Of a stretch of DNA of 64,000 nt, positions 63,623 to 64,000 are shown piece by piece. Source of the DNA: Escherichia coli (GTDB lineage: Bacteria; Pseudomonadota; Gammaproteobacteria; Enterobacterales; Enterobacteriaceae); the NCBI RefSeq assembly GCF_030013595.1, contig NZ_CP122768.1; one strand, given 5' to 3'. The notes under the pieces were generated by a model. It saw nothing but the letters and a program-made list of their open reading frames with translations. It was not told the DNA's origin and did not search any database. Position 1 is the stretch's first letter; each line of letters opens with the position of its first letter. The position numbers and the translations under genes are program-made.

Positions 63623-63799
63623 TCCTGACTTAATGCTGCAATTTCGCCAAATCGACCTGGATTAACCTCCGTCCAGGTTCGATAACCTTCTTAATACTGC
63701 TTATCTAACCGCCTGATATTGTTCAAAAATAATACTAATCGCAGTTTGTGTTAAAACGACGGCTTAGCTTTATGAGATTATTCTTATCGCCCCTTCAAG

Positions 63800-63892
63800 A
63801 GCTAAGCCACTGAGAGTGCCGGAGATAAGCGCCGGATGGGGTAGAAACCCTTAAGCCTGTGTCGCACAGACTTAAGGGTTTTCTTATTTCTG
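63800..63892 (+). ncRNA. rydB: candidate small RNA (position matches K-12 rydB) ending in a strong intrinsic terminator
   Basis: Perfect hairpin aacccttaag-cctgtgtcgcacagac-cttaagggtt followed by ttcttatttc at 63846..63892, about 230 bp past ydiH in a non-coding spacer; the RydB sequence itself was not recalled for comparison. Confidence 0.35.
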
Positions 63893-63974
63893 AACGCTGC
63901 ACTTTTTTACCTATCTCTTAAATAGTCATTTTCAATACAACTTTTTCTTTTTCATCACAGCCTTAATGCTCCTT

Positions 63975-63993
63975 AGATAATAATCATTATCTA
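63975..63993. promoter_or_regulatory. Fur box of the suf operon promoter region
   Basis: aGATAATAATCATTATCta is a near-perfect match to the Fur consensus; sufA would start beyond the window end. Confidence 0.5.
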
Positions 63994-64000
63994 ACAATGA

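Follow-up and report, generated by a model that had tools for sequence, protein, structure and literature searches.

The ydiH-sufA spacer of Escherichia coli: the small RNA gene rydB and the distal part of the suf control region

Introduction

Hfq-dependent small RNAs generally retain a hairpin and a U-tail, and the intrinsic terminators of enterobacterial small RNAs combine a G+C-containing stem with a U-rich tail and show covariation in the stem, as does the rydB hairpin described below. RydB is a known small RNA of E. coli, catalogued as RF00118, b4430 (in K-12), tpe7 and IS082, and its K-12 record covers 1764713-1764780 on the minus strand (68 nt). Its function is poorly defined: papers call it a negative regulator of rpoS, and one of them states that it has no known targets. 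In Salmonella, rydB is annotated as a 105-nt gene that comprises the conserved core together with the hairpin, and the RNA is enriched with Hfq only 2.5-fold.

The control region of the sufABCDSE operon comprises three elements, ORE-I (OxyR), ORE-II (IHF) and ORE-III (IscR/Fur), an architecture attributed to Lee, Yeo and Roe (2004, 2008); the OxyR footprint is reported to cover -236 to -197 (Lee et al., 2004). According to reviews, the OxyR site lies far upstream of PsufA and IHF bends the DNA, thereby bringing OxyR to the promoter. Published mutations of PsufA comprise -26ATA-24, within the Fur site, and -50C, within the IscR site.

Here we describe the spacer that closes a 64,000-nt stretch of E. 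coli DNA (contig NZ_CP122768.1 of assembly GCF_030013595.1; hereafter the window). The spacer is very probably composed, end to end, of rydB as an autonomous unit and of the distal half of the region that controls sufABCDSE. Both are known biology: rydB is an already catalogued small RNA gene of E. coli, and the upstream OxyR and IHF sites are part of the established control of suf.

Results

The end of the window carries the ydiJ-menI-ydiH-sufA locus in the orientation opposite to that of K-12 and is 100% identical to the corresponding locus of strain KE55 (L001), whose coordinates become window coordinates on addition of 60300. Within it, ydiH occupies 63434-63622, and the ATG of sufA falls at the window-equivalent position 64171, past the window end. 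The order ydiJ-menI-ydiH-(rydB)-sufA, with rydB on the same strand, is alike in KE55 and K-12, and the window equals K-12 at every base from 63766 to 63983. A previous interpretation of this DNA (the sequence-only reading) had described the region after ydiH as devoid of ORFs; correspondingly, the ORF list holds only frames of at most 35 aa that overlap the spacer at 63640-64000. Those of 20-35 aa were rejected as genes, given that the core is invariant everywhere and that one ORF begins upstream of the inferred transcript start.

The covariance model RF00118 (Rfam) matches positions 63789-63849 of the plus strand with 81.6 bits (E 4.3e-19; gathering score 50) and over its whole length (positions 1-61 of 61), which bears out the earlier proposal that rydB lies here, between ydiH and sufA, as it does in K-12. 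In the K-12 Term-seq data, which cover three growth conditions (Adams et al., 2021; PMC7815308, supplementary file 1), the 3' end of rydB is placed at 1764708 on the minus strand and classed as 'primary'. This nucleotide corresponds to window position 63849, i.e., to the exact end of the Rfam match and to the 5' foot of the hairpin discussed below. The file contains rydB three times, with the same 3' end in both of the entries displayed. Taken together, the Term-seq end and the Rfam match delimit a putative 61-nt species, 63789-63849, as the abundant, mature form of RydB, and not the transcript of 60-70 nt ending near 63890 that had been anticipated. Its 3' terminus (...GGGGUAGAAACC) includes the first six bases of the left hairpin arm, which are thus at the same time the 3' tail of mature RydB. 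In the displayed part of the same file, 1764708 is the sole curated 3' end across K-12 positions 1764500-1764899, and the T-tract region (1764600-1764699) holds zero curated ends. The K-12 gene record (equivalent to 63777-63844) is offset from the boundaries given by Rfam and Term-seq (63789-63849) and starts 12 nt earlier than these. With regard to sequence, flanking genes and position of the 3' end, RydB is the same here as in K-12, and nothing of substance sets the two apart.

In the two tabs of the Term-seq file that were displayed, the average reads at the rydB 3' end amount to 2.17 million (LB, OD 0.4) and 4.14 million (second tab), 12- to 50-fold above those at the lpp terminator (0.18 and 0.08 million). 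Within these displayed values, the RydB 3'-end reads are thus on a par with those of the aspV tRNA (3.5 million) and far above those of lpp, which is striking for an RNA that lacks an established target.

Immediately 3' of the RydB core, a hairpin followed by a T-tract (63844-63891, plus strand) most likely constitutes the rydB terminator; the hairpin with T-tract that the sequence-only reading had reported after ydiH is thus present, with the stem at 63844-63882 and the tract running to 63891. Positions 63844-63861 pair with 63865-63882 around a UCG loop, forming 12 uninterrupted pairs (a G-U pair, then AAACCCTTAAG/CTTAAGGGTTT), a C/A mismatch (63856/63870) and five further pairs. The T-rich tail TTTTCTTATTTCT occupies 63879-63891 and, past the GGG of the stem, reads TTTTCTTATTT, so that a stable stem-loop is followed by a U-rich tract, as in intrinsic terminators. 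The predicted folding energy is -22.0 kcal/mol, as compared with -10.1 +/- 2.4 kcal/mol for shuffled sequences (z -4.97), and none of 200 shuffles is as stable. A simple terminator scan gave zero hits at this hairpin, most likely due to the mismatch, which breaks the stem rule of the scan; this null result was discounted, since folding and covariation both reveal the hairpin clearly. On the minus strand, the fold of 63840-63895 is stronger (-26.2 kcal/mol), the C/A mismatch turning into a U-G pair.

The hairpin directly follows the RydB core in 14 of 14 aligned sequences from about six genera, and selection has acted to maintain it: 12 of its 18 pairs are altered on both sides across the alignment, with 92% of cells paired. 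Two unrelated stem sequences exist, the second of which (AACGGTCAG...) is found in three species. In the closing helix of RydB (columns 2-5 with 51-54; four pairs), two pairs show compensatory changes and 98% of cells are paired. The two inner helices (eight pairs; 98-100% of cells paired) show no changed pair and never vary, save for one unpaired cell; they are invariant, and hence uninformative on structure, in this 14-sequence alignment. Over the whole structure, 94.8% of cells are paired, versus 28-55% in slid controls, and none of 500 shuffles reaches the observed values.

The surroundings of rydB were compared in 78 loci of the Enterobacteriaceae, retrieved by a YdiH-anchored scan. The gene lies right after ydiH in Escherichia species, Salmonella, C. 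amalonaticus, two other Citrobacter, Pseudenterobacter and Leclercia, and all of 11 relatives from six genera exceed the gathering threshold of RF00118. In most Citrobacter, a gene for a metallo-beta-lactamase-fold protein and a LysR-family gene stand between ydiH and rydB, with sufA still downstream of rydB; most of the YdiH-anchored Citrobacter loci stop as rydB begins, and the full sequences were obtained via the LysR-family protein. In Salmonella, a minus-strand gene for a 448-aa transporter separates the rydB hairpin from the OxyR site, and the OxyR region remains with suf. The Salmonella hairpin (2412-2477 of locus L024) thereby faces the 3' end of this convergent gene and may act as a two-way terminator. 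Among the YdiH-anchored loci of Enterobacter, Kluyvera and Kosakonia, other genes are found and no rydB within 2 kb of ydiH. The co-moving unit extends from about 63737 to about 63891 and comprises an upstream block, the near-invariant core and the hairpin. Because the block and rydB follow the LysR-family gene in Citrobacter, and because the transporter gene splits rydB from suf in Salmonella, this comparative evidence supports rydB as an autonomous, independently transcribed unit, as the sequence-only reading had also supposed.

The upstream block (63737-63787, plus strand) is promoter-like and travels with rydB, staying with it whether the preceding gene is ydiH (Escherichia, Salmonella) or the LysR-family gene (Citrobacter). 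It consists of TTTGTGTTAAAA (63745-56), 14 variable bases and TATGAGAnTATTCTTAT (63771-87). In the latter, TG (63773-74), A and GATTAT (63776-81) may be read as an extended -10 element (TG-A-GAnTAT), a putative hexamer assignment that would be consistent with a start at about 63788/63789, the position suggested by conservation, the Rfam boundary and the RNA length. A consensus promoter scan detected no sigma-70 promoter ahead of rydB, and a search of the Cappable-seq supplements by the coordinates of both genome versions returned nothing for the rydB 5' end.

On the ydiH side, another hairpin (GACCTGGA...TCCAGGT; 63651-63683, plus strand; -16.4 kcal/mol, z -4.1) begins 29 nt past the stop codon of ydiH and has a poor U-tract; it is probably a weak ydiH terminator or a stabiliser that sets ydiH apart from rydB. 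A hairpin was found after ydiH in every species examined, and it takes the form of a classical intrinsic terminator in C. amalonaticus, Citrobacter NCU1 and Awk4 and Pseudenterobacter, and of a palindrome that looks REP-like (GCCGGATAAGGCG...CCATCCGGC) in Salmonella. That ydiH has a hairpin or terminator of its own in all these species supports the separate transcription of rydB. Further upstream, at 63381-63410, a perfect 10-bp inverted repeat (CTGCACAGTA-N10-TACTGTGCAG) surrounds the extended -10 element TGGTATACT of the ydiH promoter; it is partly kept in Escherichia, Salmonella and Citrobacter and looks operator-like. An Rfam match to mir-1278 at 63364-63425 was rejected as spurious (22 bits against a gathering score of 61), as it is due to this inverted repeat.

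About 10 bp past the T-tract begins the control region of suf. The start site of sufA was placed at 64139 (3839 in L001), 32 nt ahead of the ATG, because only then do the published mutations -26ATA-24 and -50C fit the sequence. Before sufA, KE55 and K-12 continue with TTGAAC-TGATAATCATTATCA-CTAACAT, in which the perfect 7-1-7 repeat TGATAATCATTATCA (64111-64125, i.e., -28 to -14, beyond the window) is the proximal Fur operator, the mutated bases -26 to -24 being the window-equivalent positions 64113-64115. This operator matches the Fur 19-mer at 15-16 of 19 positions in two overlapping registers and is kept across genera.

Upstream, the candidate OxyR site of suf (ORE-I) extends over 63900-63942, with a CTAT-N7-ATAG-N7-CAAT core at 63911-63936. 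Against the OxyR 37-mer, 63900-63936 agrees at 13 of 20 specified positions and thereby shares the top score of the window. The pattern CTAT-N7-ATAG-N7-C(A/T)AT is kept in Escherichia, Citrobacter and Leclercia, and in Salmonella the OxyR site stays with suf on the far side of the 1.5-kb insertion. The predicted IHF core of ORE-II, TAACAATGAGATA (63992-64004), runs over the window end at 64000. It agrees with the IHF consensus WATCAANNNNTTR at seven of nine specified positions in Escherichia and is preceded by an A/T-rich 5' flank, and a perfect match (9/9) stands at the homologous position in C. amalonaticus, Leclercia and a further Citrobacter locus (L081). The OxyR-like, IHF-like, IscR and Fur elements stand in the order, and at the distances from the start site, described for ORE-I, ORE-II and ORE-III. 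Between the IHF and IscR sites, a segment outside the window (64022-64063; 3722-3763 in L001), CCTGTTAACCC...CAGGGTCTATGCTTATTAAAAGC, is near-invariant from Escherichia to Leclercia.

The Fur-box-like sequence GATAATAATCATTATC (63976-63991) is situated downstream of the OxyR site, 84 bp past the T-tract, and adjoins the IHF core. Its agreement with the Fur 19-mer GATAATGATAATCATTATC extends to 14 of 19 positions, in one good register, and it differs from the 7-1-7 repeat TGATAATNATTATCA by two mismatches (13 of 15 matches). Sites with at most two mismatches to this repeat occur three times in the 64-kb window, versus 0.42 expected, and one of 100 shuffles gives three; about eight loci of the window score at least 14/19 on the 19-mer. 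The box that the sequence-only reading had pointed out is thus present, and its label as near-consensus is fair, if a little generous, but its assignment to the suf promoter did not hold: the box spans -163 to -148 and does not overlap the -35/-10 region of PsufA, where a Fur operator of suf would be expected, and the real operator is the proximal repeat, 135 bp further downstream and past the window end.

The box is also inconstant. It is not Fur-like (at least four mismatches) in E. albertii, Citrobacter and Leclercia, the proximal box being kept in all of these; its Fur-like character is limited to Escherichia and does not extend to the other genera in which the suf Fur box is conserved. 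Within E. coli, the box centre (63984, -155) is T in the window and C in K-12, where C weakens the Fur match; with respect to the suf region of K-12, the window thus differs by T for C at -155, which renders the IHF flank more Fur-box-like, the promoter-proximal half being located outside the window. Of 5426 complete E. coli genomes, 1987 (37%) contain an exact 55-mer with T and 3259 (60%) its counterpart with C; a G variant also occurs. T is likewise found in E. whittamii, E. albertii and Escherichia sp. MOD1-EC7003, and the T allele is probably ancestral. Given the IHF core directly 3' and the perfect WATCAANNNNTTR at homologous sites elsewhere, GATAATAATCATTATC most likely represents the A/T-rich 5' flank of the IHF site (ORE-II) and not a Fur operator.

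The best match to the Fur consensus in the window is found elsewhere, at 39029-39048 (15/19; GATAATAAGAATCATTGTT on the minus strand). It stands at the start of a minus-strand ORF (38815-39033) that is ydiE/hemP-like and lies between selO/ydiU-like and aroH-like genes, and is probably a genuine Fur site.

Discussion

The features of the spacer can be joined in the following model. rydB would be transcribed from its own promoter, with an extended -10 element and a start at about 63789, and RNA polymerase would most likely stop at the hairpin and T-tract (63844-63891). The hairpin would then be removed, presumably by cleavage, leaving the stable and very abundant 61-nt RydB with its 3' end at the foot of the stem. 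The hairpin probably acts as an intrinsic terminator for the primary transcript of rydB and also hinders read-through, and would shield the control region of suf from polymerases arriving from ydiJ-menI-ydiH and rydB. On the suf side, IHF would bend the DNA such that OxyR reaches the promoter about 140 bp downstream, and Fur represses suf through the perfect 7-1-7 repeat at -28 to -14. As a matter of speculation, an RNase III cut about 12 bp below the hairpin loop would fit the geometry of the RydB 3' end. Unlike Hfq-dependent small RNAs, the abundant form of RydB is devoid of the hairpin, which fits its weak enrichment with Hfq.

The reading from which the analysis set out, in which RydB is an RNA of 60-70 nt that ends at the T-tract near 63890 and GATAATAATCATTATC is the Fur operator of the suf promoter, draws on a hairpin that looks terminator-like, on the resemblance of the box to the Fur consensus and on the repression of suf by Fur. 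It is very improbable, as such an RNA would begin at about 63825, inside the conserved core 63789-63849, and the Term-seq 3' end is at 63849, and as the sufA start site lies 148-163 bp downstream of the box, whose place as operator is taken by 64111-64125. RydB could instead derive, by processing at both ends, from the 3' untranslated region of the ydiJ-menI-ydiH transcripts, and lack a promoter of its own. This origin would be in line with the location of rydB on the strand of ydiH, 167 nt downstream, with the poor U-tract of the E. coli hairpin after ydiH, with a RydB 3' end that is clearly not a terminator end and with the consensus scan, in which no sigma-70 promoter appeared before rydB. 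We nevertheless consider it unlikely: the promoter-like block moves with rydB as the upstream gene changes, a classical terminator separates ydiH from rydB in several species, and the reads at the RydB 3' end, in the portion of the Term-seq file displayed, far exceed those of abundant mRNAs. The succession of a conserved structured core and a terminator upstream of an operon also recalls a cis-acting leader, attenuator- or riboswitch-like, that would govern read-through into suf, and the GGGG of the closing helix could indeed pair with the CCC of the terminator left arm in Escherichia. However, a convergent gene parts RydB from suf in Salmonella, species that have the other stem sequence lack the alternative pairing, and suf is served by a mapped promoter of its own, 32 nt ahead of the ATG; the leader was rejected on the grounds of the Salmonella gene order and of the non-conserved pairing, and is barely credible. 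An autonomous rydB, followed by a terminator that belongs to its own transcript, accordingly remains the preferred account of the first unit.

With regard to the second unit, GATAATAATCATTATC might truly serve as a second Fur operator, at any rate in strains that carry T, where Fur would compete with IHF and render the OxyR-dependent induction of suf sensitive to iron. Its score of 14/19 comes close to the 15-16 of the proven proximal site, it abuts the IHF core, and its T allele is probably ancestral. This possibility is nonetheless doubtful, since the box offers a single good register where the proximal site has overlapping ones, since the weakening C is present in 60% of E. coli genomes and a G variant also exists, and since the box is not Fur-like beyond E. 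coli and its closest Escherichia relatives; the papers retrieved contain no report of Fur binding upstream. In short, GATAATAATCATTATC resembles a canonical Fur operator in its matches to the 19-mer and the 7-1-7 repeat, and departs from one in being off the promoter, restricted to a single register, polymorphic and not kept between genera. The flank of the IHF site is thus the reading retained for this box.

With both rydB and the control region of suf already in the catalogues, the discovery value of this locus is small. Its interest lies in a corrected map, in which the 3' end of abundant RydB falls at the hairpin foot and what resembles a Fur box is the flank of an IHF site far upstream of suf. 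Two implications would follow were the more conjectural parts of this map to prove true. There is a slim chance that in the approximately 37% of E. coli with T at 63984, GATAATAATCATTATC works as a second Fur operator next to the IHF core. In that case, iron-loaded Fur would impede the bending by IHF and attenuate the OxyR-driven induction of suf, a control that K-12-type strains would have lost. Likewise, the removal of the terminator hairpin from RydB, yielding a very abundant hairpin-less RNA, would represent an undescribed maturation step.
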